A stretch of DNA of 64,000 bases from Bryobacterales bacterium (GTDB lineage: Bacteria; Acidobacteriota; Terriglobia; Bryobacterales; UBA6623), in assembly GCA_965238045.1 (NCBI GenBank), contig CBDEGU010000007.1:67271-131270 (forward strand), read 5' to 3'. Within the stretch, counting starts at the first letter, position 1, and each line of letters starts with the position of its first letter. Shown in pieces: positions 16,126 through 47,507 of the stretch. A program made the position numbers and the translations under genes. The notes beneath the pieces were generated by a model. That model was not told the origin of the DNA and made no database searches. It saw nothing but the letters and a program-made list of their open reading frames with translations.

Positions 16126-16132
16126 GCCGCGC

Positions 16133-20200: not shown

Positions 20201-21269
20201 CGGTGATCGGCTCCGAACCGCGCACGAATCCAGGCACACCCGCGCCAACTTGACCCGGGGTGAATCGGAGTTCCGTGGCCAGGTCGCTGTATGCCGCGCT
20301 GCTGATCTCCCCGCCGACTTCCAAGCCGCGCGCATCCACCACATAGAGGCTGATGCGCGCCCGCATCGATTCGGACCGCAGGCGTGTCATTAAGTCGTTG
20401 TTCTGCAAATTGACGAACTGCTGCAGAAATGAGTCAAATCCAATCCAAAATCCTTGCGCGAATAGCACAATCATCTTTTTGCCCGGGTAAACGCCGAGAC
20501 CGCGAATCATGTCGATATAGCGGTAGAAGCGCGCCCGGCCAAATTGGTCTTGCAGCAGGTCGACCGTTCCCCGCTCCGCCACGCTGTCGCCCTGAAGGAT
20601 GGCTATGAGGTCAGGGCCCTCCTGGGCATTAGGTTCCTCGGGACTGGTCTGGGTGTTTGTCGAGGCAAACGGATCGTTTCCCTCCCGGACAATAATGTGC
20701 CTCTGAAAGTCAGGCTCCGCGCCCGCGAGGACATCCAAGCTTTGATCCAGTTCCAGAAGCTTCAACAGCAGCTTCTTGTCGGAAACAAACGGGGTGCCAT
20801 TGAGCGAAACGAGCACGCCAGGCTGCAGGTCCTTTTCGATGAACTTCTGGATGGCGCGCCGCGTGCGGGGCCGCTCCGCCTCGGTAATGTGGGTGGCGAT
20901 GAAGATGCGCGCCGTTCTCGGGTCCATCGCCGCGGGCGGGCTCGTACTCTCGGAGGCGGCTTGCCCCTCCGCCGCCGCCGCTTCGTCCGCCCCGCCCCGG
21001 AAGACATCGATATATTCGAGGTTCACGAGCTGTTGCGGAACACCGTTCTCGAGCAGCGTAAAGTCTTCCTTGCTCAGACCTTCGACCGGTCGCTTGCCGC
21101 GCCCGGTGACCCTGACCTCAATTTCCATCAGGGCCGTGCCACCGCGGAAAACCGGGTCGGCGGGCTGTTGAGCGGCATCGGGGGGCTGCGGGGGTGGCTG
21201 TTGCGCCGAGAGCGCGAGGCCACAGCCGAAGACCGCGATCACGCTAGTGCGCCAAAGCTGAGAGAGCAT
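17280..21269 (-). CDS. 1329-aa secreted protein: degenerate VWFA-type module, TPR array, beta-rich region, intact VWA domain
   Basis: Two copies of the FR...V.V.V....G..V.GL..EDF...EDGVPQ module. The TPR-like repeats span roughly aa 470-800. The C-terminal MIDAS is DLSGS / GGTPLYD / SDGVDN. Confidence 0.85.
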   Translation of the reverse strand: MLSQLWRTSVIAVFGCGLALSAQQPPPQPPDAAQQPADPVFRGGTALMEIEVRVTGRGKRPVEGLSKEDFTLLENGVPQQLVNLEYIDVFRGGADEAAAAEGQAASESTSPPAAMDPRTARIFIATHITEAERPRTRRAIQKFIEKDLQPGVLVSLNGTPFVSDKKLLLKLLELDQSLDVLAGAEPDFQRHIIVREGNDPFASTNTQTSPEEPNAQEGPDLIAILQGDSVAERGTVDLLQDQFGRARFYRYIDMIRGLGVYPGKKMIVLFAQGFWIGFDSFLQQFVNLQNNDLMTRLRSESMRARISLYVVDARGLEVGGEISSAAYSDLATELRFTPGQVGAGVPGFVRGSEPITGGMDDAFRNSQNGLKTLAELTDGTAVLNTNDVGEIFKKVREDLSGYYLLGYYPKESENEDDFRKIRITVSAPKVKLSYREGFFDDREFRKFMEAEQHKQLEAILGPSPSATTAEAPLPALRAYKKAYETLASENPNFPRAIEYLDAATKEYEGFAVAWNVLGYSREKTGDFGGAIEAYEKAVEADGDYINPLSHAVRLDVRASRWNKALEGADALIAKAHERTDGHFYRATALFNLGKPQEAEHAVRRVVTASDVGRYAQAYQLLGLIHASEGRFSEATQAYRDYLSVRPEAADKTQVAEQIRIWATVRSLDELKVHVANEKWDDVAELSSQLVETNPRLIGARYYNAMALYRLGETDAAVAQARNVQADERGGDYPGTHQLLGSIFSQQGKLEDAAREYRAYLALVPDSPKAADIQRRLGEWEKERRFEGPSGTTIRVQNPYGDVTMRVMRQSAPQLRIRSPARNLRQGDVVTIQEPGKTTIRAKPSDHVRIDIEIDIPYGYGFEAETADGKISVQGLAALTKLVTQRGDIEIAVPWDATRLSIEAKEPPKSYEPPARGKIAVNPGAAGWGVIDQHDRYRSTYGKIDVRAVSPGRVTLRDIPIPADSPVKMSWQAPAVLESILRAGRGPSAVSARSPSASPTVTTPAASNQESAAPIVFRSGVRMVNLAVSVTSTGGVPSTGLTVEDFEILEDGVPQEISALTAGDAPFNLVLLLDLSGSTVEDRAAMKLAAARFVSTARPTDRIAVYGLSAEMFAVATHLTSDREQLASSINSAPSVSGGTPLYDTIVLAYNEELRQLPGERNALIIVSDGVDNQLASILYPGGDDGKDDKRSRRKKRGKRRNASELVPGVVASASKVPFEQLRQAVAHMDTLIYPYILGNGGRRSFPGGVGTTARENMEALAAASGGRAFLAASVDDPQPFREAAKELRSVYTVAYYPKNQNFDGAWRNVEVRVKRPAAIVRTRAGYQAR

Positions 21270-26090: not shown

Positions 26091-27666
26091 CTAGGCCGCC
26101 GCCGCGGCCGCCCTTGCCGCGGGCTTCCACGCCAGCCGGATCCATTGCGCGATGTTGTAGGCCAGCAGTGCCCACAGCAGCTCCGCTCGCGCCTTCCTCA
26201 ACCCTCGCACTCGAAACTTGCGCACCCCCATGCGCTCCTTCAGCCAGGCGTTGGGAAATTCCGCCACCTCCGAGCGGCGCCGATACGCCGCCTTCGCCCG
26301 CTCGCTCTCCATCCACTTGCGATGCCGCGCCAGCAACGCGTCTTCTTCGCCGCGGCTGAGCGTTCGTCCCCGCTGGTAACTTCGCGGACAACATGGCAAG
26401 CGGTATGCGCACGACTGGCAGTCGGAACTTCGCGCCTGGTATTGCCGATACCTTCTGCCGCGCTTGCTCGATGCCCTCCGATAGGCCAGCGTCTTGTTGG
26501 CCGGACAAGCATAGGTGTCGCCAGCCTCGTTATAGATGAAAAACTTCGCTTCGAATCCGGCCGCGATGCCCGCCGCCCGCGCCGCCGCCGTCGAACCTTG
26601 CTGCGGCGACCGCGCCGGGGTCGCGTACTCGATGCGGGCCGCCTGCATCGTCGTAAGATTGGCGCGGCTGTTGTAGCCCATGTCCGCCAGCACTTGCCGC
26701 GGCTTTCGCCCCAGCCGCCGCTCCATGTCCGCCAGCGTTGGCTCGAGTTGTTGCGCGTCACTGGCGTTGTTGGTCAGCTCCACGCCCACCACAATCTTTT
26801 CTTTCGCGTCGATCGCCAGCTGCGCGTTGTAACCCGTCGCCCAGCCGCCGTTGGACTCGTGTTGCCGCCGCGCCTCGGGCTCGTTTTCGCTCACCCGCGC
26901 CTCCGCCACCCGCTCTTCGCCGCGCTTGGCCGCTTCCACTTGCCGCAACTGCTCCAGCGCTTGTTCCATGCGCTCAACTTTTTCGCGCGCCGCCCGCCGC
27001 CGCGCCGCTTGCCGCCGTTGGTTGCTCTCTTCGTCGCCGGCTTGCGCCGCCAGTTCCTCGACCACCGCGCGCGCTTGCTCGAGGTGTTTCTCGATCGTTC
27101 CGCGCCGCCGCTCCGAACTCGTCGAACCCTGCGAGCGCAGCCGCGTGCCGCCGGCCGCCACCTGCTCCAAATCAATCAACCCGGCTTGGCTGAGCACCGC
27201 CAGCACTTGCGTGAACATCTGCTCCAGCGCTTCGGCGTGACACACCCGAAAGTCCGACAAGGTGTGATGATTGACCACTTCCATCCCGCATCCCGCAGAG
27301 CCACTCCAGCTCGGGACGGTAGTCCATTTGCCGTTCGATTTCGCGCGCCGAACTGATGCCTTCCGAATAGGCCCAGATCCAGATCGCGACCAGCAGACGC
27401 GGGTCCCAGGCGGCTCGTCCGCCCTGATCGCGTTGGGTGCGCAAGGCGCCGGCAAAGCCGCTCAGATCGAGCCGTCCGCTGAGTTCCCAGATCGCCCGCA
27501 CCGGATGATCGGCGCCCACCAGTTGCTCGACATCAATGGTGCGGAGTGTGAGTTGACGCCGATCGGGCCGGCGCAATTTCAGCCGCTCCATCGGGATCGC
27601 CGGCTCCACCGGGGACTCGCTGGCACGGTGCTGCTCGAGTTGGATCAGCGTGATTTGGTCGGCCAT
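26091..27666 (-). pseudogene. IS1182-family transposase, frameshifted
   Basis: The N-terminal part (27666..27172, ...YRPELEWLCGM) and the C-terminal part (27455..26091, ...CGMEVVNHHTLSDFR...YNAQLAIDAK...) are in different frames. They join exactly at a 7-bp tandem duplication. Confidence 0.85.
27283..27296. repeat. 7-bp tandem duplication ATCCCGC x2 that disrupts the transposase frame
   Basis: Read directly. Deleting one copy gives ...LEWLCGMEVVNHH... and a single 522-codon ORF. Confidence 0.85.
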
Positions 27667-31348: not shown

Positions 31349-31960
31349 ATGCTTGATCCAAACGCGGACCCGGCGACCGGCGCCGGGGGAGGGGCCGCGG
31401 CTGGCAAAGCGGAAAACTCCGCTGAGCCGTCCTTTGTTTCCAAGCTGATTCAGGGTTTCCGCTCCGGCGAATCCGGCAAGGAGGGCATCAGGACGCGGCG
31501 GCGCTTTGTCACCTTCGCCATCGCTGGTTTTCTCACAACGAACTTTCTGATGTTCTTGCGGTTCTTCTTCCCGCGAACCATCTTCGAGCCGAAAACCGTG
31601 TTTCGTATCGGCATGCCGGCCGATTTCGGTGTCGGGGTGGATACGAAATTTCAGAAGGCGCGGCGCATCTGGGTTGTCAAAAACACTGAGCGGCTGTTCG
31701 TGATCAACGCGATCTGCACGCATCTAGGCTGCACGCCGGACTGGAAAGAGTCAGAACAGAAATATAAGTGCCCCTGTCATGGCAGCGGTTATGATCCGGA
31801 AGGCATCAATTACGAGGGTCCGGCGCCCCGTCCCATGGACCGCGCTAGGGTAGAGATCGACCCCGAAGGCCAGATTGTCGTGGATACTAGTGTCACCTTT
31901 AAGTGGGAAAAAGGCAAGCGAAGCCAGTTTGATGATCCGGGTGCTTACGTCGCCATCTGA
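31349..31960 (+). CDS. Rieske 2Fe-2S subunit of a cytochrome bc-type complex
   Basis: CTHLGC...CPCHGS boxes, an RTRRRF twin-arginine motif and one TM helix. Confidence 0.9.
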   Translation: MLDPNADPATGAGGGAAAGKAENSAEPSFVSKLIQGFRSGESGKEGIRTRRRFVTFAIAGFLTTNFLMFLRFFFPRTIFEPKTVFRIGMPADFGVGVDTKFQKARRIWVVKNTERLFVINAICTHLGCTPDWKESEQKYKCPCHGSGYDPEGINYEGPAPRPMDRARVEIDPEGQIVVDTSVTFKWEKGKRSQFDDPGAYVAI

Positions 31961-32101
31961 TTCCGGATTCGAATCAGAAGCAAGGCGCGCGGCGCTCTCG
32001 TCGCGCCGCGTTTTCGGATCACGTCGCGCCAGGCGGTGATTCGTTTGCCGCCGGGATCTCGCATCGGTCGCGGCGACCGTCGAGAAAAGGAGCCAGATAG
32101 C

Positions 32102-33016
32102 ATGGCGGAAGGAACAGTCAAGAAAGATCAGGGCGTGGACGCGGCCGATGGCAACGGGAGCAAGCTGCTCGGCTTGATTGATTCCAGCGTGATCAAGGAG
32201 AAGGCGGCGCAAGACCTGGCAGCGTTCAAGAAACCCACCAAGTCCGAGTTGTACAAGTCGATTTTTCGTGTCAAGCACGACGAAACGCCCCGCAGCCGCA
32301 CACTCGGTGTTCTCAGTAATGTGTTCTTGCATCTGCATCCGGCGAAAATCAATCGGGACGCGGTCGCCTACAATTTTACTTGGGGCATGGGCGGTATCTC
32401 GTTCTACCTGTTCTGGGTGCTCACCTGGACGGGCGTGCTGCTGATGTTCTACTACCATCCGACGAAGGTGCAAGCCTTCCGCGATATCCTCTATCTGGAG
32501 CACGACGTGCCCTTCGGCAAGCTCCTGCGCAATATGCACCGCTGGGGCGCTCACGCGATGGTGCTGACCGTCTGGCTCCACATGTTCCGGGTCTTTCTCA
32601 CGGGCTCCTATAAGAAACCGCGCCAGTTCAACTGGTCGGTGGGCGTGATTCTGCTTGTGCTGACCCTGCTGCTCTCGTTCACCGGCTATCTGCTGCCCGA
32701 CGATCAGCTCGGTTTCTGGGCCGTCACCGTGGGCACGAACATGGCGCGTGCCAGTCCGATGTTGGGCCATGAAGGACCCTTCGGACTGATGATGGGCATG
32801 ACGCCCTACAACGACGTGCGTTTCGCGCTGCTGGGAGGCTCCATCGTCGACTCCAATGCCCTCTTGCGCGCTTATATTTGGCACTGTGTCGCCATACCAG
32901 GATTCGCCGCGACGTTCATGATCGTGCACTTCTGGAGGATCCGCAAGGACGGCGGCATCTCGGGCCCCGCGCCCATGATGCTCGAGAGGGAGATCAAGCC
33001 GTTGCGAAAGATCTAG
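32102..33016 (+). CDS. cytochrome b, N-terminal (b6-like) subunit
   Basis: Cytochrome b/b6 N-terminal-domain sequence (FYLFWVLTWTGVLLMFYY, RNMHRWGAHAMV, FTGYLLPDDQLGFWA). ATG 32102 follows AAAAGGAG. Confidence 0.9.
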   Translation: MAEGTVKKDQGVDAADGNGSKLLGLIDSSVIKEKAAQDLAAFKKPTKSELYKSIFRVKHDETPRSRTLGVLSNVFLHLHPAKINRDAVAYNFTWGMGGISFYLFWVLTWTGVLLMFYYHPTKVQAFRDILYLEHDVPFGKLLRNMHRWGAHAMVLTVWLHMFRVFLTGSYKKPRQFNWSVGVILLVLTLLLSFTGYLLPDDQLGFWAVTVGTNMARASPMLGHEGPFGLMMGMTPYNDVRFALLGGSIVDSNALLRAYIWHCVAIPGFAATFMIVHFWRIRKDGGISGPAPMMLEREIKPLRKI

Positions 33017-33064
33017 CGCCAGGATCGATTCTGTACGGTTGCGCTTACGAGGAGACAAGGTTTT

Positions 33065-34000
33065 ATGGATTGGCATCAGCTTTGGACGATCATCTCCCTG
33101 CCCGACAATGTCCCGATTCTCGGGTTGATGGTTCTGATCCCGTTCTACAGTTGGTACGCCTTCCGCCAGGCGTTCGCCAACGACCGGCTGATCAAGAAAC
33201 TGGAAGCGGATCCGGAAATGGCCAAGACCCATCACAGGAAAACGCAGCCTTTTCGGGAGGGCTGGGCCCGCGAGGTTTATGTCTGGCCCTACCTGCTGCG
33301 CATAGAATTCTTGTCCGCCATTATCGTGACCGCGATCTTGATGGTATGGTCGATCACTCTCGACGCGCCGCTGGAAGAGCCCGCCAATCCGTCGCTGACG
33401 ATGAACCCGTCCAAGGCGCCCTGGTACTTCCTGGGGCTGCAGGAGATGCTCGTCTATTTTGATCCCTGGATTGCCGGCGTCATGATGCCGACTCTGATCG
33501 TCGTCGGCCTGCTCATCATTCCCTATATCGACACGAATCCGCTGGGGAATGGCTACTACACATACGCTCAGAGAAAATTCGCCATTTGGGCCTTCCTCTC
33601 TGGCTTTATTATTCTCTGGTGCTCCATGGTCGTGATCGGCACGCTGATTCGCGGACCCGGCTGGATGTGGTTCTGGCCCGGCCAGACTTGGGACCATAAC
33701 CGTCTCATCTTCGAAATCAATCGCGATCTGCACGAGATTCTTGGGATGACCGACCCGCTGGTCTACGGCATCTTCGGCTTCCTGGTCGTGGCGGGATTCT
33801 ATCTGGTTGCCGGTTACGGCGTGCATCGGATCATGTCCTGGAACGAGTTCAATCGCAAGATTCTGGCCCGCATGACGCTGCTGCAATATCTGACCATGAA
33901 TTTTCTCCTCGTCACCATGATCGCGCTGCCGGTCAAGATGGCCGCGCGCCTGCTCTTTCGGATTAAGGACGTGTGGGTCACGCCCTGGTTTAATGTCTGA
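33065..34000 (+). CDS. cytochrome b C-terminal domain subunit (subunit IV-like, extended)
   Basis: PWYFLGLQEMLVYF (PEWY-region equivalent) plus several TM helices. Confidence 0.8.
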   Translation: MDWHQLWTIISLPDNVPILGLMVLIPFYSWYAFRQAFANDRLIKKLEADPEMAKTHHRKTQPFREGWAREVYVWPYLLRIEFLSAIIVTAILMVWSITLDAPLEEPANPSLTMNPSKAPWYFLGLQEMLVYFDPWIAGVMMPTLIVVGLLIIPYIDTNPLGNGYYTYAQRKFAIWAFLSGFIILWCSMVVIGTLIRGPGWMWFWPGQTWDHNRLIFEINRDLHEILGMTDPLVYGIFGFLVVAGFYLVAGYGVHRIMSWNEFNRKILARMTLLQYLTMNFLLVTMIALPVKMAARLLFRIKDVWVTPWFNV

Positions 34001-34057
34001 CGCCCTTGCGGGTCAGCCCGCGCACCGATGAAATGGAACGGAGAATGAACGGACGAA

Positions 34058-37000
34058 TTGCTCATGCCTGACAAACCGACACTCGAGCCGGATCCAGTAA
34101 TAACGAAATCACTGAGCGTGCCGCTCATGGTATCGACGCTGATTCTGTCGCTCTCCCTCGTCTGGGCGCTCTACGACGAGGTCTATACCATGAGGCCCTG
34201 GAAAGGGTTTCAGAGCGACTTCCTCGAACTCTACTCGGCGCACTTGGGGAAACTGAAACCCCAGCAGGCCGGGCTTGAAAAGCAGATCAAGGAGTCGCCG
34301 GAATATCAGGATCTCCAGAAGCAACTCGATGAGGCCGAGGCCACGGCACGAGAACGCTCCGCCGAGATCGATCGTCTGGTGCGGCGGGGTGTTACGCCGC
34401 GCATGATTGCCGCCCGTCAGACATTCCAAATTCTGCGAACCGAAGCCGACGCGCAGATCTACTTGCTGGAAACCGCCGGCAACGAAGCGGCGAAGGAATC
34501 CCTGCGCCAGAATATCGAAGAAATCAAGCAGCGCGGCGTGGAAGTCAAGCTGGCGCTGGCCGACGGTTCCGGCGGCGCCGAGACCGTCACGATGAACTAC
34601 GCCCAACTGGAGCAAGAATATCTCGGGCTCCAGCGACGGCGCGTCGAACTGCAAAAGGAACGGGCCGAGGTTCTGGCCCCGGCCAGCGGCCTTCGCGCGA
34701 CGCGCGACGCGCTTCTCGCCGACCGCCTCAGCGGTCTCAGCGCACAGCAGATCGAAGGCCTGATCTCAAAGACGGACAGTTTTCAGATTGCGATCAAGCA
34801 GATTCATCTCAATGACATCGATCTGGTGGACCGCTGCCAGTCCTGCCACCTCGGTATTCTCGAGCCGCTCGAGATCAAGGCCGCCGATGTTGGGGGGCGA
34901 GCCGAGTTTGTTAGTCATCCGATTCCGGACCTGCTCAAGATTCACGACCCGGAGCAGTTCGGCTGTACCAGTTGTCACAACGGGAATGGCCGCGCCACGC
35001 GCTCGGCCGTCAAAGGCCACGGCCGCCACAAATTCTGGCTCTGGCCAATGTACGAAAAGGAAAATACGCAAGCCGGATGTCAGCAGTGCCATGCGCGCGA
35101 AATCATTACCGATTATGCCGGGGTTCTCAACAAGGGCCGCACCCTGTTCCTCAACAAGGGCTGCTGGGGCTGTCACCGCTTCGAGGGTTTCGACAAGGAG
35201 ACCGAAGAACTCGCCGCCGTGCGCCAGAGCATGATTATTCTCAACAACGAGAGGACGACGAATGAGAAGGAGCGGCGCGAGAGCATCGAACAGGGCGATC
35301 AGGCTCCGGATCCGGACGAGTCCGACCGCTTATATGCCAGGGCCGGCTTCCTCCATCTGCGCAACAGCGTCATCGACGCCGAACTGGACGCGCTGAAGAT
35401 CGAAGAGACGTCGCTGGTTCGAGAAGTCCGCAAGTTCGGGCCCAATCTGAAAGAAATCAAGGTCAAGGCGCGCAAGGAATGGGTGCCGGTTTGGATCAGC
35501 AACCCGCATGCATTCCGTCCAGGCGCTAAGATGCCCGAGTTCCGGCTGCAAGAAGACGAAGTCCAGAAAATCGCCGCCTATATTTGGCAGAACGCCATCG
35601 ACGGCGCACTCGTTCAGCACCCGCCGGGCAACGCCGAACGGGGCAAGGAACTTTTCGAAATTCGCGGCTGCATGGGCTGCCATTCGATGGGCGAGGGCGA
35701 CGAGAAGCAAGGCGACACGTTCGCCGCCAACCTCACCCGCGTGGGCGAGAAGACGACCTACAATTTCCTCGTCCGCTGGGTTCACGACCCCAGTGAGCTG
35801 ACTCCGGATCCCAATGCCGATCCCGATCAGCCGCGGCTGATCCCGCTGATGCCCAATCTGCGGCTGAGCCTCGCTGAGTCACGGGACATTGCCAGCTATC
35901 TGGCCGCGCGGAAGACCGACGCCGCTTACCCGCCGGCCGATTTCATGGACGACCCGGAATTGGCCAAGGAAGGCATGACGCTGATCCGCCATTACGGCTG
36001 CGCCGGATGTCACGAGATACGAGGTCTGGAAACCGAGGGTCGTATCGGCACCGAGTTGACCGTCGAAGGCAGCAAGCCTGTCGAGAGGCTCGATTTCGCC
36101 CTGCTAACCCATCCGGCCGAACGCGAAGGCTGGTACAACCACAAGGGTTTCTTCGAGCACAAGTTGGCCGACCCCGCGGTCTTCGATCAAGGGAAGGTTC
36201 GCCCGCACCTTGAAAAGTTGCGGATGCCGAATTTCCATCTTTCCGGGGACGACGTTACCGCCCTGACGACGTTCCTTCTTGGGGCGGTTGATACGACGTT
36301 CCCCGAGCACTATCGCTACGAGCCCGAGGACGAGCGGCGTGCCGTGCAAGAGGGTTGGTGGATCGCCCGGCGCTATAACTGTGTCGGCTGTCACCAGATT
36401 TCCCTCACCGGCCGTACGGCTCTGATGGGGATTCCGCGCTATCAGGATCCGGACTGGCAGGAACAGCTTCCGCCCCAGCTCTTCACCCAGGGCGCGCGAG
36501 TCCAGCCGGACTGGCTCGTGGGCTTCCTGAATAATCCCGCGCTCAGCGAGACCGACATCCATCGCAACGGCATCCGCCAATATCTGCATGCCCGCATGCC
36601 TACGTTTAACTTTACCGAGCGGCAGGTCATGAAACTCACGACGTTCTTTGCCGCCAAGTCCTCGCAGCCGGTTGCCTATATTCCCAAGGAACTTGAGCCG
36701 CTGACACTGCGGGAGCTCGCTCTGGCCCGGCAGCTCTTTAGCAGCCGCGCGGCGCCATGCTTGAAGTGCCATATGACCGGCGACCCGGCGCACGACCGTA
36801 CCGCGACGGCGCCGAATTTTCTGACTGCCGGCAGCCGTCTCAAGCCCGACTGGACCTACCGCTGGCTGCTGGAACCGGCCAAACTCGCGCCTGGCACTGC
36901 CATGCCGTCGGAGTTGTTCCGGCAAGAAGGCGACCGCTGGATCTTCGCTGGTCCTCTGCCCGCGTCTTTCGATGGCTATGAAAAAGACCATGCCCGGCTG

Positions 37001-37066
37001 CTGGTGCGCTATATGTTCCAGATGACCCCGGGCGAGGTCCGCCGGCTGGGCGTCGCGGGACAGTAA
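34058..37066 (+). CDS. membrane-anchored octaheme cytochrome c (1002 aa)
   Basis: Eight CxxCH motifs: CQSCH, CTSCH, CQQCH, CWGCH, CMGCH, CAGCH, CVGCH, CLKCH. There is an N-terminal TM helix and long heptad-like charged stretches. The start is TTG 34058 or ATG 34064. Confidence 0.9.
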   Translation: MLMPDKPTLEPDPVITKSLSVPLMVSTLILSLSLVWALYDEVYTMRPWKGFQSDFLELYSAHLGKLKPQQAGLEKQIKESPEYQDLQKQLDEAEATARERSAEIDRLVRRGVTPRMIAARQTFQILRTEADAQIYLLETAGNEAAKESLRQNIEEIKQRGVEVKLALADGSGGAETVTMNYAQLEQEYLGLQRRRVELQKERAEVLAPASGLRATRDALLADRLSGLSAQQIEGLISKTDSFQIAIKQIHLNDIDLVDRCQSCHLGILEPLEIKAADVGGRAEFVSHPIPDLLKIHDPEQFGCTSCHNGNGRATRSAVKGHGRHKFWLWPMYEKENTQAGCQQCHAREIITDYAGVLNKGRTLFLNKGCWGCHRFEGFDKETEELAAVRQSMIILNNERTTNEKERRESIEQGDQAPDPDESDRLYARAGFLHLRNSVIDAELDALKIEETSLVREVRKFGPNLKEIKVKARKEWVPVWISNPHAFRPGAKMPEFRLQEDEVQKIAAYIWQNAIDGALVQHPPGNAERGKELFEIRGCMGCHSMGEGDEKQGDTFAANLTRVGEKTTYNFLVRWVHDPSELTPDPNADPDQPRLIPLMPNLRLSLAESRDIASYLAARKTDAAYPPADFMDDPELAKEGMTLIRHYGCAGCHEIRGLETEGRIGTELTVEGSKPVERLDFALLTHPAEREGWYNHKGFFEHKLADPAVFDQGKVRPHLEKLRMPNFHLSGDDVTALTTFLLGAVDTTFPEHYRYEPEDERRAVQEGWWIARRYNCVGCHQISLTGRTALMGIPRYQDPDWQEQLPPQLFTQGARVQPDWLVGFLNNPALSETDIHRNGIRQYLHARMPTFNFTERQVMKLTTFFAAKSSQPVAYIPKELEPLTLRELALARQLFSSRAAPCLKCHMTGDPAHDRTATAPNFLTAGSRLKPDWTYRWLLEPAKLAPGTAMPSELFRQEGDRWIFAGPLPASFDGYEKDHARLLVRYMFQMTPGEVRRLGVAGQ

Positions 37067-37136
37067 ACGACTTACGGGCGCTCTTTGGCCCTCTATTTGC
37101 AAACGAAACTGCTATCCGAATAAGGAAGGTATTGAA

Positions 37137-37922
37137 ATGACGAGATGCAACAGAGTGTTCGCCCTCATGACGGTAAGCCTGATCGCTATCGCTGCGGGCT
37201 GCGGTGGGGGTGGCGGAGATGAGGCCGCGCCCGCTGGCGGCGAAGCCGCCCCGTCCGCCGACTACTTCAAGGTCGATCCCCCCAAGGCCGCCACGATTAC
37301 CGGCAAGGTTAACCTCGAAGGTGATCCTCCCAAGGTGCGCCCCATCAATATGAGCGCCGAACTGGACTGCAAAGAGCTGCATACGGGCACCGTTATGCCC
37401 GAGGTTGTCGTGGCGAAGGACGGCAAGCTGCAGAATGTTTTTGTTTGGGTCAAGAGCGGTCTCGGCGACAAGAAGTTCGAAGTTTCCTCCGAACCCGCTA
37501 GACTTGCCCAAAAGGGTTGCGTCTACGTGCCTCATGTCCTCGGTCTGCAGACGAACCAGCTCATCAAGATTGCCAACAATGATCCGTTGACTCACAATGT
37601 CCACCCTCTGCCCAGGAAGAACCGCGAGTGGAACAAGTCGCAATCGCCAGGCGCCTCGGAACTCGAGTACCAGTTTCCGCGCGTCGAACTGAAGCTGGCC
37701 GTCAAGTGCAATATCCATCCCTGGATGCGGTCGTACATCCATGTGGTCGAGCACCCGTTCTTCGCGGTCACCGGTGCGGATGGCACCTTCGAGATCAAGG
37801 GTCTCCCCGCCGGCACCTACACGATCGAAGCGGTTCACGAAAGGCTCGGAGAGCAAGAGGTTAGCGTGACCCTCGGCGAGGCGGAGTCCAAGGACGTTGA
37901 ACTTACTTTCAAGGCTAGCTGA
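37137..37922 (+). CDS. lipoprotein with an amicyanin-like type-1 copper site and a C-terminal carboxypeptidase-regulatory-like beta domain
   Basis: Lipobox LIAIAAGC. Cu ligand pattern THNVH ... CNIHPWM (compare amicyanin PHNVH ... CTPHPFM). Tail FEIKGLPAGTYTIEAVHE. Confidence 0.7.
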   Translation: MTRCNRVFALMTVSLIAIAAGCGGGGGDEAAPAGGEAAPSADYFKVDPPKAATITGKVNLEGDPPKVRPINMSAELDCKELHTGTVMPEVVVAKDGKLQNVFVWVKSGLGDKKFEVSSEPARLAQKGCVYVPHVLGLQTNQLIKIANNDPLTHNVHPLPRKNREWNKSQSPGASELEYQFPRVELKLAVKCNIHPWMRSYIHVVEHPFFAVTGADGTFEIKGLPAGTYTIEAVHERLGEQEVSVTLGEAESKDVELTFKAS

Positions 37923-38847
37923 TTCCGGCCGTGCCACGCCGGTCGCGTTGCACCGCTTTGCTGTGTTCACCGCCGCCTCGACGTTTTGTTTGCTCATCGC
38001 CGGGGCGCTGGTGACCAGCCGCGATGCGGGCCTTTCCGTGCCCGACTGGCCTCTCTCCTATGGCCAATGGATGCCGCCGATGATCGGTGGCATCTTTTAC
38101 GAACACGGCCACAGGATGGTCGCCAGTTTTGTCGGCCTTTTGACGATTGTTCTCGCTCTCTGGCTCTGGCGCGCCGAATCTCGCCGCTGGGTCCGCCGTT
38201 TGGGATTCGCGGCCCTGGGCGCGGTCGTCGCGCAAGGGCTGCTCGGCGGCATGACGGTTCTCTTTCTGTTGCCAACCGCCGTCTCGGTCGGTCATGCTTG
38301 TCTGGCGCAGTTGTTTTTCTCTATGACCGTTGTCCTCGCGCTCGTTACCTCGCCGGGCTGGCATCGACCGCCTCCTCCCGGCCCGGATCCTACGCCGGAC
38401 GCCAGGCGACCGTCGCTGAAGGCCCTCTGCGTCCTGGCCAGCGCGATGATCTTTGTGCAGCTATTGATGGGAGCGGCTTTCCGGCACAAGGGATTTGGCA
38501 TCATCCCGCACTTGATCGGCGCCTGCGTCGTCGCCGCTGTTGTACTGTGGATCATGGCCCGCGTGGCGGCGACTCATTCCTCCCAAGCGGACATTTTCGG
38601 CTGGGCGCTCGCGATCAACGGACTGCTGATGCTCCAGCTCGTTCTCGGCGCGGGGGCCTACTGGATACGGGATATCACCCAGGATGCCCCACAGCCGCTG
38701 CCGCCGATGGTCGTTCTGACCGTTGCTCACGTTGTGCTTGGCGCCGTGCTTCTGGCTTGCAGCGTGGTCCTAACCTTCCAGACTTCGCGAGGCGCGAGGC
38801 GGAGTTTCGATGATCCGTCGCTCCAGCAGGCTCGGGTGACGACATGA
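37897..38847 (+). CDS. ctaA: heme A synthase (COX15/CtaA)
   Basis: GALVTSRDAGLSVPDWPLSYG and EHGHRMVA motifs, with 8 predicted helices. The start is uncertain (TTG 37897, TTG 37948 or GTG 37963). Confidence 0.85.
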   Translation: MNLLSRLADSGRATPVALHRFAVFTAASTFCLLIAGALVTSRDAGLSVPDWPLSYGQWMPPMIGGIFYEHGHRMVASFVGLLTIVLALWLWRAESRRWVRRLGFAALGAVVAQGLLGGMTVLFLLPTAVSVGHACLAQLFFSMTVVLALVTSPGWHRPPPPGPDPTPDARRPSLKALCVLASAMIFVQLLMGAAFRHKGFGIIPHLIGACVVAAVVLWIMARVAATHSSQADIFGWALAINGLLMLQLVLGAGAYWIRDITQDAPQPLPPMVVLTVAHVVLGAVLLACSVVLTFQTSRGARRSFDDPSLQQARVTT

Positions 38848-39755
38848 GGCCTGAGTTTCCAGGCGTCCCCGCCCCAGCCGCTGCCGTCGCGACGGCGCCC
38901 AGGCCCGCTCTGGCGGACTTCCTCGAACTCACCAAACCCACCGTCGTCTGGCTTATTCTTCTCTCGACCGCCGTCGGCTTCTATCTCGCCTCGGCGGGAC
39001 CGCTCGATGTGCTTTTGCTGCTGCACACGCTCGCCGGCACGGCGCTCCTAGCCGCCGGTACCGGAGCGCTGAACCAGTGGCTCGAACGAGGACTCGACGC
39101 CAAGATGCGGCGTACCAGGAACCGGCCCCTTCCCGCCGGGCGCCTGCAGTCCCGGCCGGCGTTCTGGTTCGGCGTCGCGCTCTCGGTTGCTGGCGTAGCC
39201 TACCTCTTGGCGGCGGTCAATTCACTTGCCGCCCTCACCGGTTTTCTCACTCTGGCCTCGTACCTGGGCCTCTACACGCCGCTGAAGACGCGTACTCCGC
39301 TAGCGACTTTCGTCGGAGCGTTTCCCGGCGCGGCGCCTCCTTTGATCGGCTGGGCGGCGGCTGCTGGCCACATCGGCCTGGAAGGCTGGCTAATCTTCGC
39401 CATCCTCTTTCTGTGGCAGTTTCCCCACTTCTACGCGATTGCCTGGATCTACCGGGAAGACTACGGCCGCGCGGGAATCCGGATGCTGCCGGTCATCGAA
39501 CCCGATGGCGTTTCCACCGGACGGCGGATCATCTGGTACGCCGCGGTCCTAGTGCCCATCAGCCTGGCGCCGAGCCTGGCCGGGATGACCGGCAAGTTCT
39601 ACTTCGTCGCCGCTCTGCTGCTCAGTACCGCCTACTTGGCGAGCGGTCTGCGAACGGCCAGCGCCAAGACCACGATCCAGGCCCGCAAGCTCCTCCGCAC
39701 CTCTGTCCTCTACTTGCCCCTGCTCTACGTTTTCCTCGTCCTCGATAAGACCTAG
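38844..39755 (+). CDS. ctaB: protoheme IX farnesyltransferase (heme O synthase)
   Basis: UbiA-family motifs (LNQWLERGLDAKMRRTRNRPLPAG, FLWQFPHFYAIAW). There is a 4-nt overlap with ctaA. Confidence 0.9.
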   Translation: MRPEFPGVPAPAAAVATAPRPALADFLELTKPTVVWLILLSTAVGFYLASAGPLDVLLLLHTLAGTALLAAGTGALNQWLERGLDAKMRRTRNRPLPAGRLQSRPAFWFGVALSVAGVAYLLAAVNSLAALTGFLTLASYLGLYTPLKTRTPLATFVGAFPGAAPPLIGWAAAAGHIGLEGWLIFAILFLWQFPHFYAIAWIYREDYGRAGIRMLPVIEPDGVSTGRRIIWYAAVLVPISLAPSLAGMTGKFYFVAALLLSTAYLASGLRTASAKTTIQARKLLRTSVLYLPLLYVFLVLDKT

Positions 39756-42312: not shown

Positions 42313-43008
42313 CTACTGAATGCGCGCCAGTTCCTTGAGGTCGAGTTTTCCCGTGTAGATGGCCATGCCGAGGGCCGCGTGCACGCCCATCTGGCCTAAG
42401 CGCCGAATCTCTTCGAGCGTCGTAATGCCTCCGGCGGCGGTAATCTCCCGCTCGGTGGCCCTCCGCAGCCGGGCGTACCAGTCCAAGTCCGTTCCTTCGA
42501 GCATGCCCTCCTTGTCGACATAGGTACACAGGAAGCCGCCGCAGTAGGGTTCCAGCTCCTCGATCACCTCTTCGGCCCGAAGATCGGTCGCCTCCCTCCA
42601 GCCTTTCACTACGATGTGTCCGCCCTGGGAGTCCAGGGCCAGAAGGATTTTCTCCCGGCCGATCGCCTGGCCCAGTGCCTCGAGAAACCGGTGATTGACG
42701 CCATTGCCGTCGTAGGCCGCCGTTCCGACAATGACCTTCGATGCGCCGGCCTCCACCAGCGCTTGCGCCCTCTCCACCGAGCGCACACCGCCCCCAACCC
42801 TGGTCACCGCGCTAGCCGCCAGTTCACGCACGATCGAATCATTCGACCCCGTGCCAATGGCGGCGTCGAGGTCGATCACTTGAATCTCGGGAAAGGCGGC
42901 GAACTTTTCGAGCATCCTGGCCGGGGAATCCCCTTCCAAAGCCTTCTTCCGTCCCTGAACCAACTGGACGACCTTGCCCCCCATCAGATCAATGCATGGA
43001 AGGATCAT
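42313..43008 (-). CDS. hisA: ProFAR isomerase
   Basis: [19 protein letters not shown]... (beta/alpha)8 HisA/His6-like sequence. ATGA overlap with the hisF stop. The ORF extension to 43236 is rejected. Confidence 0.85.
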
Positions 43009-43787
43009 GATTTCCCCGTCCCCGCCCCTCTCGTGCGAACCGGTATGCCGTGCCCGGCGAGGATCTCCTTCAGCCCGTCCACCGTATAGGCGCCGTAGTG
43101 GAAGATCGAGGCCGCCAGTGCGGCGTCTGCTTCGCCTTCGCTCAGTACTTTGACGAAATCCTCGGGCTTCCCGCCCCCCCCGCTGGCGATCACCGGGATC
43201 TGCGTATTCCTCGATATCGCGCGGGTCAATTCGCAATCAAAGCCGATTTGGGTGCCGTCGCGGTCCATTGAGGTCAGCAGGATCTCGCCCGCTCCGAGCG
43301 CTTCTCCCCTCGCGGCCCACTCGACCGCATCCATGCCAGTGTCGGTCCGTCCTCCATAGGTGAATACATTCCACCCGCCCGCATCCCTCCGGCGGGCGTC
43401 GATCGCCAGCACGACCGCTTGCGCCCCGAACTCTTGGGAAAGTTCACCGAGCAGTTCCGGCCTCTCCACCGCCGCCGTATTCACCGAGACCTTGTCCGCG
43501 CCGACAACCAGGATCTTCCTGGCGTCCTTTACTGACCGTATGCCCCCGCCGACGGTGAGCGGGATGAAGACTTCCCGCGCCGTACGCTCCACCAGGTCGC
43601 GCATGATGTCGCGCCGGTCGCTCGATGCCGTGATGTCGAGAAAGACCAGTTCGTCGGCTCCGTCGCGGTTGTAGGCGTTCGCCAGCTCGACCGGGTCTCC
43701 GGCATCGCGCAGCCCGACGAAATGGACGCCCTTGACGACCCGGCCCGCTTGAACATCGAGGCAAGGGATAATGCGCTTCGCTAGCAT
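43005..43787 (-). CDS. hisF: imidazole glycerol phosphate synthase, cyclase subunit
   Basis: [12 protein letters not shown]...[11 protein letters not shown]...[15 protein letters not shown]. Confidence 0.95.
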
Positions 43788-44383
43788 TCCAGAAAATTCC
43801 GCATGATCCGCTGGCCGGCCGCGCCCGATTTCTCCGGGTGAAACTGAACCGCGTACACGTTGTCCGACTCCAGGGCCGAGGTATAGCGCACTCCATACAC
43901 GCTGTGCGCGGCGGCGCGCTCGCCGGCCGCTTCGGTTGGGACATAGTAGCTGTGAGCGAAATACACGTAGGGATGCTCTTCCAGACCGGCCAGCAGCTTC
44001 GGCCGGCCTCTCGGCTCGAGCTGGTTCCAGCCCATTTGCGGCACCCGCGCTTCGGCCGCGAAACGCTTGACTTCTCCAGGATAGATGCCCAGCCCGCGCA
44101 GTTCCGGCGCTTCCTCACTTTTCTCAAACAAGAGGTGCAGGCCCAAACAGATGCCCAGGAACGGCACCCCGGCGGCGATGCGTTCCTTCAGCGTCTGGCG
44201 CACGCCGAGCGCGTCGAGCGAGCGAATCAGCTGTCCGAAATGTCCCACGCCCGGCAGGATGATCCGGTCGGCCCTCGCCAGTCCGCCGCTCTCGCGGACG
44301 ATCTCGTAGCTGACTCCTAGCGCGTCCAGCGTGTTTTCCACCGACCTGAGATTGCCGGCTCCGTAATCGAAAATCGCGATCAT
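43781..44383 (-). CDS. hisH: imidazole glycerol phosphate synthase, glutaminase subunit
   Basis: [15 protein letters not shown], nucleophile context GICLGLHLL and FHPEKS. The ORF extension to 44476 is rejected. Confidence 0.9.
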
Positions 44384-44408
44384 GCCTGCTCCGCCATCCA
44401 GACCGCCG

Positions 44409-45017
44409 TCAGGCTTCTCTCGAGGCTTTTTCCAGCAGTCCCTTGGTGCTCGGGAGCTGGTCCTTAAGCCTGGCATCCTTCGAGCAGCCGTATCGCATCG
44501 CCCGCGCGAAGCACTTGAAAATCGCCTCGATCTTGTGATGGCTCGATCGGCCGTACATCACTCGCGCATGCAGGTTCGCGCCGCAATGCGTCACGAAGCC
44601 GTCGAAGAAATCCTCCAGCAATTCAACCTGCAAGTCTCCGACGAGCCGGAACCGCACCGGCGCGTGATAGGCTAGCGCGGGCCGGCCGCCCAGATCCACC
44701 GCGACCACCGCCAGCGTTTCATCCATCGGCAGAACAAAGTATCCCGCGCGATTGATGCCGACCCGGTCTCCGAGCGCCTTGGCGAAACATTGCCCCAGCA
44801 CGATGCCTGCGTCTTCGACCGTGTGATGCTGATCCACGTCGAGATCGCCCGTGGCTTCCAGGTCGAGGTCAAATCCGCCGTGCCTGGTAAACAGTTCCAG
44901 CATGTGGTCGAAAAAGCGAATGCCGGTCGCAATCTTGTAGCGTCCCCTGCCCTCGATGCGCAGTTTGGCCCGAATCTGGGTCTCCTTAGTCATTCGTTCG
45001 ATTGTGGCGACTCTCAT
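44409..45017 (-). CDS. hisB: imidazoleglycerol-phosphate dehydratase
   Basis: [24 protein letters not shown] and [16 protein letters not shown]. Confidence 0.95.
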
Positions 45018-45074
45018 CTCTGTATCCCCTGGCGGCCTTGGACCTTGCGCGCGGGTACGGCTCGAACGTGCCCG

Positions 45075-46160
45075 CTAGTCCTCACTCCCGACGATCTGTT
45101 CAAGGCTCGCCAGGAGCCGTTCGGTCTGCTTTCTGGTACCTGCGGTGATTCGTGCTGTGCCGGCAAGATCCCCGCCGCGGTCCCGAATCAAGATCCCTTG
45201 TTGCCGCAAGGTTTCGCAAATCTGTTTCGACCGCTCGCCGAAGCGCGCCAGCACGAAATTCGCCCGGCTCGGAAAATACCCCACGCCCAGCCGGTCCAGG
45301 CCTTCGCACAACATCCGCCGGGCATCGAGCGCCTCGGCCACGTACTCTCGAACATAGTCCTGATCGCCGACGGCTTCGGCGGCGCAGGCCGCCGCCAGAG
45401 CGTTGACGCTGTAAGGGGATTGCCCCTTGCTCACGAGCGCGATGTTCTCGGCTTGCGAGAGCAGGCAGCCAATACGAAAACCCGCCATGCCGTACGCCTT
45501 CGAGAAAGTGCGGCTGACGAAGAGATTCGGATAGGCGTCGAGCAACCCGAGCGCCGTCACGCCGTGGAACTCGAAATAGGCCTCGTCGATCAGTACCGCC
45601 GCGTCACCGGCGCTGGCGAGAAGTTTCTCGATCTCCGCCAGCCCGATCGCTCCTCCGGTCGGATTATTGGGATTCGAGATCAGCACCGCCCGGGTTCGTT
45701 GGCTGATCGACTCGATCAATGCCTCGAGCGGGAAGGCGAGTTCAGGCAGCTGGTAGGGGACCGCCCGCGGTTCGGCGCCGGCGAGTTCAGTGTAGAAACG
45801 GTACATCGAGTAGGCGGGCGAGGGGATCAGCACCTCGTCGCCCGCCTCCACATAGGTGCTGATCAGGCAGTGAATGGCCTCGTCGGTACCGTTAGTTAGC
45901 AGCAGACGGTCCGGCGGCACGCGCAGGAATCCGGCCAGCACCTCCACCGTCTCGGAATACTCCGGATAGGTTGCGAAAAAATCCGGTTCCATCAAGCGCG
46001 CGATCAACGAGACGACTTTCGGCGAACAGCCGACGGTGTTTTCGTTGAAGTCCAGCCGCAGCTTGCCGCGCCGTCCGCCGGTCGGGGGCGAATAGGGAGC
46101 CATGCGCTCGACGGCCCGGCGCGGTTTTGGACGCGAGATGGTCATTGTCTCACTCCTCAA
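45075..46160 (-). CDS. hisC: histidinol-phosphate aminotransferase
   Basis: Class-II aminotransferase with PLP lysine context SRTFSKAYGMAGFRIG. Confidence 0.9.
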   Translation of the reverse strand: MRSETMTISRPKPRRAVERMAPYSPPTGGRRGKLRLDFNENTVGCSPKVVSLIARLMEPDFFATYPEYSETVEVLAGFLRVPPDRLLLTNGTDEAIHCLISTYVEAGDEVLIPSPAYSMYRFYTELAGAEPRAVPYQLPELAFPLEALIESISQRTRAVLISNPNNPTGGAIGLAEIEKLLASAGDAAVLIDEAYFEFHGVTALGLLDAYPNLFVSRTFSKAYGMAGFRIGCLLSQAENIALVSKGQSPYSVNALAAACAAEAVGDQDYVREYVAEALDARRMLCEGLDRLGVGYFPSRANFVLARFGERSKQICETLRQQGILIRDRGGDLAGTARITAGTRKQTERLLASLEQIVGSED

Positions 46161-47415
46161 TGCGCACCTCGATCGAACGCGCGTGAGCCTCCAAACCTTC
46201 GGCCCGGGCGAGCGTCGTAATCGCCGGCGCGAGCTTTCGCAAGCCGGGCTCGGTGAGTTTCTGCACCGAAATGAGCTTCACGTAATCGAGCACCGACAAG
46301 CCGCCGCGAAGCCGCGCCGCGCCGGCGGTCGGCAGTACGTGATTGGGCCCCGAAGCGTAATCACCCGCCGCTTCGGGACTCCATTCCCCGATGAATACGC
46401 TCCCGGCGTTTTGCACGTTCTTCAACAGCGATTCATCGGGAATCGAGAGATGTTCGGGCGCGAAGCGATTGGCAATCTCGACCGCTTCCTCGATCGATCT
46501 CGTGATGATCACCGCCGCATTGCGCTCGATCGACTGCCGGGCGACCCTGGCGGTGGGCAGCGACGCGAGCTGTTTGCTAATCTCCTTCGAGACCTGTTCG
46601 GCCAGCCGCTTCGAGGTGGTTAGCAGCACGGCGCTGGCATCGGGGTCATGTTCAGCCTGCGCCAGCATATCGGCCGCCAGAATGCGCGCCTCTTTCCGGG
46701 CCGCGCCCTTGGGTGCGATCAGCAGAATTTCGCTCGGCCCAGCGATGAAGTCGATCCCTACCACGCCCGCCAGCAGCTTCTTCGCCGCCGCCACGTAAAC
46801 ATTACCCGGACCGACGATGCGTTCGGCTCGCGGCACGGTATCGGTTCCAAACGCGAATGCGGCAATGGCCTGCGCCCCCCCCATGTGAAAGAAATTCTCG
46901 ACGCCGAGCCGGCCCGCGGTCCCCAAAGTTTCCAGCGACGATCCCGGCGATGCCACCAAAACCGACTTGACCCCCGCCACCTGTGCCGGGATCACGGTCA
47001 TCATCAGGGTCGACGGCAGCGGATAGCGCCCACCCGGCACATAGGCACCCACCGATTCCAGCGGGCGCACGATCTGCCCCAGCCGCACGCCGCGCTCGGT
47101 CGTCTTCATCCAGCTCTGGGGCATCTGCAACCGGGCGAATTTCCGCACCTGGGCCGACGCCGTGTCCAGTGAGCGGCGGAACTCCCGGTCGAGCCGGCCC
47201 GAGGCGTCGGCAAGCTCCGCCACCGGGACCCGCACCGAATCCCGCGCCAGCCCGTCGAAGCGCCGGGCGTAGGCCAGCAGACCCGCGTCGCCGCGTTTCT
47301 CGACCGCCTCCAGAATGGGAGCGACCACTGACTCGGCCCGGCCCAGACGCAGCTGCCTCGTATCGAGCAGACGCTGCATCGCTTTCGAGTCCGTGCTGGC
47401 GATGGTTCTTAGCAT
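46150..47415 (-). CDS. hisD: histidinol dehydrogenase
   Basis: GPSEILLIA, QAEHD and SPEAAGDYASGPNHVLPT. Start taken at MLRTIAS. The ORF extends to 47457. Confidence 0.9.
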   Translation of the reverse strand: MLRTIASTDSKAMQRLLDTRQLRLGRAESVVAPILEAVEKRGDAGLLAYARRFDGLARDSVRVPVAELADASGRLDREFRRSLDTASAQVRKFARLQMPQSWMKTTERGVRLGQIVRPLESVGAYVPGGRYPLPSTLMMTVIPAQVAGVKSVLVASPGSSLETLGTAGRLGVENFFHMGGAQAIAAFAFGTDTVPRAERIVGPGNVYVAAAKKLLAGVVGIDFIAGPSEILLIAPKGAARKEARILAADMLAQAEHDPDASAVLLTTSKRLAEQVSKEISKQLASLPTARVARQSIERNAAVIITRSIEEAVEIANRFAPEHLSIPDESLLKNVQNAGSVFIGEWSPEAAGDYASGPNHVLPTAGAARLRGGLSVLDYVKLISVQKLTEPGLRKLAPAITTLARAEGLEAHARSIEVRIEE

Positions 47416-47507
47416 CCGAAATTTCACCCTTAAGAACGAGTTACGGAAAACAAACAATCCCCTTCCGAAACTGCCGTGTGTTTCCGTGGCGTTGAAGAAT
47501 CAATGAG

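Follow-up and report, generated by a model that had tools for sequence, protein, structure and literature searches.

A split Rieske/cytochrome b gene cluster with an octahaem cytochrome c, a cupredoxin lipoprotein and haem A synthesis genes in Acidobacteriota and its probable link to an aa3 oxidase

A stretch of 64,000 nucleotides (nt) from a Bryobacterales bacterium (GCA_965238045.1, contig CBDEGU010000007.1, positions 67,271-131,270 of the forward strand), here called the window, contains a cluster of seven genes that an original prediction had described as a "non-canonical bc-type respiratory module". To investigate this cluster, its genes were identified, its proteins were analyzed for cofactor-binding residues and fold, and its neighborhood was compared with that of related loci. 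Seven co-directional open reading frames (ORFs) were found on the + strand at 31349-39755, and their coordinates matched those given earlier. Five of the seven genes (the Rieske gene, both parts of cytochrome b, ctaA and ctaB) were named directly by Pfam and NCBIfam. The genes, their products in amino acids (aa) and the main basis of each assignment were as follows, AF2 standing for AlphaFold2.

31349..31960, + strand: Rieske [2Fe-2S] subunit, 203 aa, with a twin-arginine signal-anchor (PF00355)
32102..33016, + strand: cytochrome b N-terminal, b6-like subunit, 304 aa from ATG (PF00033)
33065..34000, + strand: subunit-IV-like (cytochrome b C-terminal) protein, 311 aa (PF00032)
34064..37066, + strand: membrane-anchored octahaem cytochrome c, 1000 aa (8 CXXCH)
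37137..37922, + strand: cupredoxin-domain lipoprotein, 261 aa (lipobox, AF2/Foldseek, invariant ligands)
37897..38847, + strand: ctaA, haem A synthase, 316 aa (PF02628)
38844..39755, + strand: ctaB, haem O synthase (protohaem IX farnesyltransferase), 303 aa (TIGR01473)

The spacing within the cluster ranged from overlaps to gaps of at most 141 nt, in line with the small gaps that had been predicted. The genes ctaA and ctaB overlapped by 4 nt, and the two genes into which cytochrome b is split were 48 nt apart. A scan for promoters and terminators gave a result no better than that obtained with shuffled sequences, and neither the Rfam scan nor the tRNA scan gave a hit in the window. All gene calls of the original prediction were correct, and its description of the cluster as a non-canonical bc-type module was judged to be fair.

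To determine how widespread the arrangement is, a pattern scan was performed on one genome per species. It returned at least 575 genomic stretches with a relative of the octahaem protein, the best 80 of which were analyzed. The octahaem proteins of these 80 related loci were 46-73% identical to that of the window, and the nearest genomes among the matches listed were Bryobacterales metagenome-assembled genomes (MAGs), with an identity of 72-73%. The order Rieske gene, cytochrome b N-terminal part, cytochrome b C-terminal part and octahaem gene was present in 61/61 loci with enough upstream sequence. Among the 67 loci with enough downstream sequence, the cupredoxin gene followed within 1.2 kb of the octahaem gene in 65, ctaB was present in 59, ctaA in 42 and both in 38. 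Based on these counts the exact seven-gene layout is the majority form in Bryobacterales, Solibacter-like bacteria, Acidoferrales and other Terriglobia, and its recurrence in 80 other genomes places it far beyond chance. The cluster is therefore common in the lineage; it is the standard Terriglobia layout and the copy in the window is an ordinary member. A search for a cultured carrier, seeded with the octahaem protein of a Solibacter MAG, yielded only metagenome or MAG proteins among its best 120 matches, and a protein-cluster look-up for the octahaem protein returned no isolate names; the presence of the system in Solibacter usitatus rests on the literature. Two carriers were labeled as Acidimicrobiia (L034, VFZE01000015.1) and Verrucomicrobiae (P0318). 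The octahaem protein of the former was 52% identical to that of the window and that of the latter 83% identical to that of a Solibacter MAG, and both are probably mis-binned contigs rather than true occurrences outside Acidobacteriota.

The Rieske protein matched PF00355 (2.1e-8, 34.4 bits, cut-off 20.3) and contained both cluster-binding boxes, CTHLGC and CPCHGSGYD, which were kept in 67/67 and 62/67 related loci, respectively. A TRRRF twin-arginine motif preceded the single hydrophobic helix (residues 56-74) at its N-terminus, which confirmed it as a Rieske protein of the twin-arginine translocation (Tat) type. The second box included a Ser/Tyr pair (CPCHGSGY), which is a signature of high-potential centers (PMC3509893). 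The N-terminal part of cytochrome b matched PF00033 (1.6e-38) and had ∼90 extra N-terminal residues; an alternative GTG start at 32036 would extend it to 326 aa. Its nearest solved structures were cytochrome b6 chains (1e-40), and all four axial histidines of haems bL and bH, located on helices B and D, aligned with His86, His100, His187 and His202 of b6. The histidines of helix D had the b6-type spacing H-x14-H in YIWHCVAIPGFAATFMIVHF. The position of b6 Cys35, the ligand of haem ci, was occupied by a glycine (NFTWGMGG vs NIFYCLGG), and this cysteine was also absent from the 67/71 related loci that had the motif [YF]TWGMGG. The subunit-IV-like protein matched PF00032 (3.3e-6) and had ∼6 hydrophobic segments, compared with three in PetD. 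Its quinol oxidation (Qo) site motif, APWY, aligned to the PEWY of b6f subunit IV and was embedded in K-A-P-W-Y-F in 74/76 related loci. Both halves thus had Pfam matches, and the predicted split of cytochrome b into a long b6-like subunit and an extended subunit-IV-like protein of 311 aa was confirmed, the N-terminal part measuring 304 aa from its ATG.

The gene that follows would encode a protein of 1002 aa from an alternative TTG start at 34058, which is the length originally given. The protein had exactly eight CXXCH motifs, at residues 258, 301, 339, 367, 536, 646, 773, and 899, and eight were also counted in 83/84 octahaem homologues. It matched Cytochrom_C, Cytochrome_C7 and Paired_CXXCH in Pfam and showed no cytochrome f match in the family scans, which agreed with the claim that it replaces cytochrome c1 or f. 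From the N-terminus onward, a single transmembrane helix was followed by a long helical hairpin, then by three multihaem-type CXXCH motifs (c7/MtrC/paired-CXXCH), and finally by five class-I-like haem domains. Each of haems 4-8 was trailed by a Met-Pro motif, and all five Met-Pro motifs were invariant in the alignment of homologues, which suggests that they provide the sixth ligands of five class-I His/Met haems. The AF2 model of the octahaem protein had a mean predicted local distance difference test (pLDDT) score of 52.8 and a predicted template modeling (pTM) score of 0.28, so that its haem domains were unusable and only the helical hairpins could be trusted (pLDDT about 85-91). The first, antiparallel hairpin followed the membrane anchor at residues 46-238 (∼190 residues) and carried a small beta tip at 159-177; the second, at 376-455, was inserted in the first class-I domain. 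In this model the hairpins could possibly serve in docking, in dimerization or as a periplasmic spacer.

The 261-aa protein began with a lipobox (AAGC), the Cys22 of which was invariant. Pfam recognized only its C-terminal part, as CarboxypepD_reg (PF13620, residues 210-257), and in sequence and profile searches against the PDB only this beta-sandwich domain was significant and the cupredoxin part was not. An AF2 model based on 31 homologues had a pLDDT of 79.6. When this model was compared with the PDB by Foldseek, the matches were amicyanin, plastocyanin, pseudoazurin, and the cupredoxin domains of CuA and NirK, with a probability of 1.00 and target template modeling scores (TM-scores) of 0.5-0.75. 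The residues H153/H156...C191-x2-H194-x2-M197 were invariant in the 31 homologues, and C-N-x-H-P-W-M was found in 73/75 loci. The lipobox, the cupredoxin fold and the invariant His/Cys/His/Met set supported the earlier call of a type-1-copper lipoprotein. The protein thus appears to be a type-1-copper-like cupredoxin joined to a CarboxypepD_reg-like beta-sandwich, for which copper binding is predicted. Four further residues, C78, H82, C128, and H133, were also invariant in the 31 homologues and might provide a disulfide or the ligands of a second metal site. The N-terminal strand (52-61) resembled the first CarboxypepD_reg strand, so that this domain may enclose the cupredoxin.

The presence of ctaA and ctaB was confirmed by matches above the cut-off to PF02628 for the former (2.1e-24, 86.6 bits, cut-off 29.9) and to TIGR01473 for the latter (1e-84, 284.7 bits, cut-off 210.3). 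The ctaA product had 8 hydrophobic segments and gave only a weak hit to the alphaproteobacterial haem A synthase equivalog.

No COX1, COX2, COX3, SCO1, or DUF420 gene was found in the 64-kb window, either by tblastn with CoxI-IV, SCO1 and DUF420 or by Pfam scans of large ORFs, which bore out the earlier statement that no ctaC/D/E genes flank the cluster. The 8 kb to the left of the window held ribosomal and housekeeping genes and no oxidase gene. In the related loci, a coxII-coxI-coxIII-coxIV operon was located inside or beside the cluster in 12/80 cases. The operon was recognized by COX2, COX1 (2e-143), COX3, and COX4_pro, and it occurred in five arrangements.

cox after ctaB: L023, L028, L030, L064, L070
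cox between the cupredoxin gene and ctaA: L060
cox between the octahaem and cupredoxin genes: L051
cox upstream, same strand: L077, L084
cox upstream, divergent: L075, L076, L082

The genes have repeatedly been reshuffled and yet stay together, which is good evidence that they form one functional unit. The A1-type motif WFFGHPEV was present in CoxI in 11/12 of these cox loci. The CuA motif was found in 11 of the neighboring CoxII proteins and CXXCH in none of them; the oxidase is therefore of the aa3 and not of the caa3 type and needs an external electron donor. Further, SCO1 was located downstream in 16 loci and DUF420 in 31, often following ctaB. As cox genes adjoin the cluster in 12/80 loci, the missing oxidase is a matter of gene location and not of the biology of the system. 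The window would then represent the commoner version, with the oxidase operon elsewhere in the genome. The original prediction had presented haem A and haem O synthases without an oxidase as the oddity of the system. Its gene calls and its view of the system as uncharacterized held, while its emphasis on the absent oxidase was not upheld by the comparison with relatives.

Taken together, these data make it probable that the cluster encodes a menaquinol-oxidizing Q-cycle complex that works in the forward direction and feeds an aa3 oxidase through the octahaem protein, either directly or by way of the cupredoxin, and that CtaA and CtaB make the haem of this oxidase. The seven genes would then constitute the quinol-oxidizing half of an aerobic branch, together with the cofactor biogenesis for its oxidase. 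The Rieske protein, the split cytochrome b and the subunit-IV-like protein would form a b6-type core. Menaquinol is the quinone of Acidobacteria, and the conserved ligands suggest that it would be oxidized at the APWY-type Qo site in a Q cycle. The Rieske cluster would pass the high-potential electron to the octahaem protein, standing in for cytochrome c1 or f. From there, the C-terminal His/Met domains might reduce the CuA center of the A1-type aa3 oxidase directly; alternatively, the octahaem protein might reduce the lipid-anchored cupredoxin, which would act as a tethered shuttle to CuA. CtaB and CtaA would provide haem O and haem A to the aa3 oxidase, the operon of which would lie outside the window, more than 23 kb from the cluster in the source genome.

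Published expression data were consistent with this direction of electron flow. The consecutive genes 1753-1756 of the acidobacterial MAG CO124, labeled C-III, have the same Pfam make-up as the four core genes of the window (PMC10564751, Supplementary Data 3), namely Rieske, cytochrome b N-terminal, cytochrome b C-terminal, and Cytochrome_C7/CBB3/Cytochrom_C/Paired_CXXCH cytochrome (PMC10564751). Their log2 fold changes under oxic vs anoxic conditions were +5.2 for the Rieske gene, +1.2 for petB, +3.7 for petD, and +4.3 for the multihaem cytochrome c gene (PMC10564751); three of the four were significant and petB was not (Dyksma and Pester, 2023, PMC10564751). This upregulation provides independent support for the forward direction.

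Several points weigh against the forward, aa3-linked complex. Reverse operation has been proposed for complexes with the APWY motif (Kao and Hunte, 2014, PMC4122944). The Ser/Tyr signature of the Rieske protein predicts a high potential, which would be an awkward fit with menaquinol as the substrate. No oxidase gene was found in the part of the source genome that was searched, namely the 64-kb window and 8 kb on its left side. Co-transcription of all seven genes is suggested by strand and spacing only.

If the complex instead ran in reverse, or served anaerobic or extracellular electron transfer, the octahaem protein would trade electrons with partners in the periplasm or the outer membrane, in the way suggested for Geobacter bc complexes of the APWY type and for the Ext cluster, and ctaA and ctaB would be chance neighbors. 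The reverse role proposed for the APWY clade (PMC4122944) would fit, and so would the best NCBIfam matches of the cytochrome b parts, Geobacter ExtP (257 bits) and ExtQ, the c7/MtrC multihaem type of the three N-terminal haems, and the 190-residue helical hairpin, which could bridge part of the periplasm. Both family matches were, however, below the cut-off (257.2 vs 290 for ExtP and 45.8 vs 150 for ExtQ), and the porin, rhodanese and 10-12-haem genes of the Ext clusters were found in 0/80 loci, where the actual neighbors were cox, ctaA/ctaB, SCO1, and DUF420. As five of the eight haems are class-I His/Met-like and MAG CO124 expressed three of its four core genes at significantly higher levels in oxic than in anoxic conditions, we regard this explanation as improbable. 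It is likewise unlikely, if somewhat less so, that the copper protein delivers copper to the oxidase or helps to assemble it rather than carrying electrons, with the octahaem protein alone reducing CuA. Its gene marks the border at which the structural genes give way to the biogenesis genes, in L051, where the cox operon follows the octahaem gene, it remains together with ctaA-ctaB, and the invariant C78, H82, C128, and H133 could make a second metal site. In L060 and in the five loci without ctaA/ctaB, on the other hand, the cupredoxin gene stays with the bc genes. Its His/Cys/His/Met set with the short C-x2-H-x2-M loop is the type-1 pattern of electron transfer proteins, whereas PCuAC-type CuA chaperones use His/Met without Cys, and its top structural matches were the electron carriers amicyanin, plastocyanin, and pseudoazurin.

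Archaeal cytochrome b homologues of the SoxC/SoxG type carry haem A, and the haem O or haem A from CtaB and CtaA might accordingly be inserted into the cytochrome b of the cluster itself, which would then be self-contained and require no oxidase. The co-occurrence counts could be read in this way, since ctaB accompanies the bc genes in 59/67 loci but cox genes are present within 10 kb in only 12/80. Yet four loci without both ctaA and ctaB keep the full bc set and the cox genes, the NCBIfam score for b6 was 176 bits against 93 bits for SoxC, and the neighboring SCO1 and DUF420 genes indicate oxidase assembly, which leaves this explanation very little probability. For the forward, aa3-linked complex, a bolder version can be put forward tentatively, as a possibility that we would rate below even. 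In this version the cluster would be the main complex III of Terriglobia and would be hard-wired to the aa3 oxidase, with the octahaem protein and the cupredoxin replacing all soluble carriers in a physical bc-aa3 supercomplex. Such a complex would combine an APWY Qo site with a Rieske protein of the high-potential type, lack haem ci and run forward on menaquinol, contrary to the published proposal of reverse operation.

The cluster was also inspected for further neighbors. In the window, bioB was located upstream, and NrsF and an extracytoplasmic function (ECF) sigma factor were found downstream on the opposite strand, as the original prediction had noted for bioB and a sigma/anti-sigma pair. 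These genes were rejected as members of the module because their co-occurrence with it was confined to the near-identical assemblies L001-L004, and none of the 80 other loci had them beside the cluster. In the related loci, an ABC ATPase (32/80) and an ABC-2 permease (27/80) were encoded directly after ctaB, often with DUF420 and SCO1 (for example L026, 15888-16838, + strand, and L078, 17577-18401, + strand). This pair is not present in the window and could act as an exporter connected with haem or copper. Downstream of the cluster, 22/80 loci encoded a membrane protein that combines HEAT repeats with a lipoyl/HlyD-like domain, and 18/80 a small 4Fe-4S ferredoxin, usually on the strand opposite to the HEAT-repeat gene (L073, 19157-20056, + strand; L026, 19407-19805, - strand). 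Both are absent from the window.

Other parts of the window were examined as well. Just past the sigma/anti-sigma pair, a run of histidine biosynthesis genes (43005-47457, - strand) encoded two His_biosynth proteins, a GATase, an aminotransferase and a histidinol dehydrogenase, and is ordinary housekeeping context. A chlorite-dismutase-family protein (62771-63709, + strand; PF06778, 6.7e-55) was encoded 23 kb from ctaB, adjoining SnoaL-like and Cob_adeno_trans genes. It is probably a coprohaem decarboxylase of the HemQ/ChdC type, i.e., the product of a haem-synthesis gene. An ORF of 454 aa at 26091-27455 (- strand), between a pterin-binding gene and an M28 peptidase gene, encoded a DDE transposase of the insertion sequence (IS) type (PF01609/PF13751). 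At the same site the near-identical assemblies had either two ORFs (231-232 and 294 aa; L001, L002) or one of 397 aa (L003); as the ORF calls differ, the IS copy differs or is frameshifted among the assemblies. A large uncharacterized gene set consisted of a 1141-aa ORF without a Pfam match (12700-16125, + strand), a VWA-domain protein (16133-17218, + strand), and, facing these genes of 12700-17218, a 1329-aa TPR and VWA protein (17280-21269, - strand).

The four core genes have already been cataloged as complex III and the cytochrome b belongs to a described clade, while the full composition and the function had not been worked out. Within a partial coverage of the literature, no paper was found on the combination of octahaem protein, cupredoxin and ctaA/ctaB or on its biochemistry. 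The statement that the combination is uncharacterized therefore stands, and no study was found that describes the layout and assigns it biochemically in a cultured acidobacterium. The cluster is a lineage-wide variant of Rieske/cytochrome b complexes, without the haem ci cysteine and with a doubled subunit IV, a coiled-coil-bearing octahaem protein, and a cupredoxin with a beta-sandwich, and its genes are linked to those of an aa3 oxidase and of the haem and copper biogenesis for this oxidase. With a core that is a recognizable b6-type complex, it does not amount to a novel type of machine. In Acidobacteriota, which rank among the most abundant bacteria of soils, the cluster appears to be standard in the aerobic respiratory chain, although metabolic reconstructions list it under the generic name 'cytochrome bc complex'. 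Through it, two questions become accessible to testing, namely what Rieske/cytochrome b complexes of the APWY type do, for which no biochemistry after the 2014 survey was found, and how a Rieske protein of the high-potential type operates on a low-potential quinone. Should the complex form a true supercomplex with the oxidase, it would be a third wiring of complex III to complex IV (CIII-CIV) without a soluble cytochrome c, beside the actinobacterial bcc-aa3 and the alternative complex III (ACIII)-aa3.

Compared with known systems, the cytochrome b appears to fit the APWY clade, to which it was assigned by motifs and not by a tree: it is split, has the APWY motif, and is accompanied by a Rieske protein with the high-potential-type signature. 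This clade is characterized by a split cytochrome b and a mid-to-high-potential Rieske protein and includes one copy from Solibacter usitatus (PMC4122944), and none of its members had been characterized as of 2014 (PMC4122944). Its counterparts are groups A1/A2 of Baymann et al. (2012) (PMC3509893), who listed four Rieske/cytochrome b complexes in Solibacter usitatus, one of them split (PMC3509893). Most, although not all, members of the clade have WCMGG, whereas the protein described here and those of all 67 acidobacterial loci in which the motif could be read have WGMGG and no cysteine. The papers on the clade treat cytochrome b and the Rieske protein only and not the octahaem protein, the cupredoxin or the link to ctaA/ctaB, and the reverse operation that was published for it is disfavored by the gene neighborhoods found here. 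Among anammox bacteria, the Kuenenia complexes Kustd1480-1485 and Kuste4569-4574, the closest systems that have been studied in part, likewise combine a b6-like four-helix cytochrome b with a subunit-IV-like protein (PMC12954380) and, by description, have a hexa- or octahaem cytochrome c in the place of cytochrome f (PMC12954380). Kustd1485 is described as having long alpha-helices (PMC12954380), comparable to the hairpins modeled in the octahaem protein of the window. The anammox complexes differ in that they have an NAD(P) oxidoreductase subunit and, in one case, also an octahaem protein resembling hydroxylamine oxidoreductase (HAO), neither of which is present here; no NAD(P) oxidoreductase domain was found in the seven genes or their conserved neighbors. 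They also lack the cupredoxin, ctaA/ctaB, and the oxidase link of the cluster in the window.

The Geobacter proteins ExtO/ExtP/ExtQ/ExtS similarly combine a Rieske protein, a cytochrome b, a small membrane protein, and multihaem cytochromes (PMC5877670). ExtQ, however, has 134 profile positions compared with the 311 aa found here, and the scores for these families were under the cut-off. The context of the Ext genes, with a porin, a rhodanese, a selenoprotein cytochrome, and a role in anaerobic metal or selenite reduction (PMC5877670), is also unlike that of the cluster. With the b6f complex the cluster shares the H-x14-H spacing of helix D, the separate subunit IV, and a cupredoxin as the partner on the acceptor side (plastocyanin in b6f). 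In contrast to b6f, it lacks both the haem ci cysteine and cytochrome f, its subunit IV is double in size with ∼three extra helices, its cupredoxin is a lipoprotein fused to a beta-sandwich, and its setting is respiratory and not photosynthetic.

A genetic coupling of complex III to complex IV in Acidobacteria was reported by Trojan et al. (2021), who described the CIII + CIV superoperon ctaC-D-E-F-petC-petA-petB-ctaG (PMC8407424). The cluster described here is not this superoperon, as the gene order differs and the cytochrome b of Trojan et al. is unsplit. In their operon petB is unsplit, a cytochrome c gene precedes that of the Rieske protein, and the oxidase is of the caa3 type; the cluster described here starts with the Rieske gene, continues with the split cytochrome b, the octahaem and the cupredoxin genes, is associated with a CoxII that lacks a cytochrome c domain, and is not accompanied by cox genes in the window. 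What the cluster has in common with this superoperon, and with the actinobacterial bcc-aa3, is the genetic coupling of a bc-type complex to a haem-copper oxidase of the A type. The actinobacterial bcc-aa3 has a membrane-bound multi-haem cytochrome c instead of a soluble one, and the same logic would apply to the octahaem protein described here.

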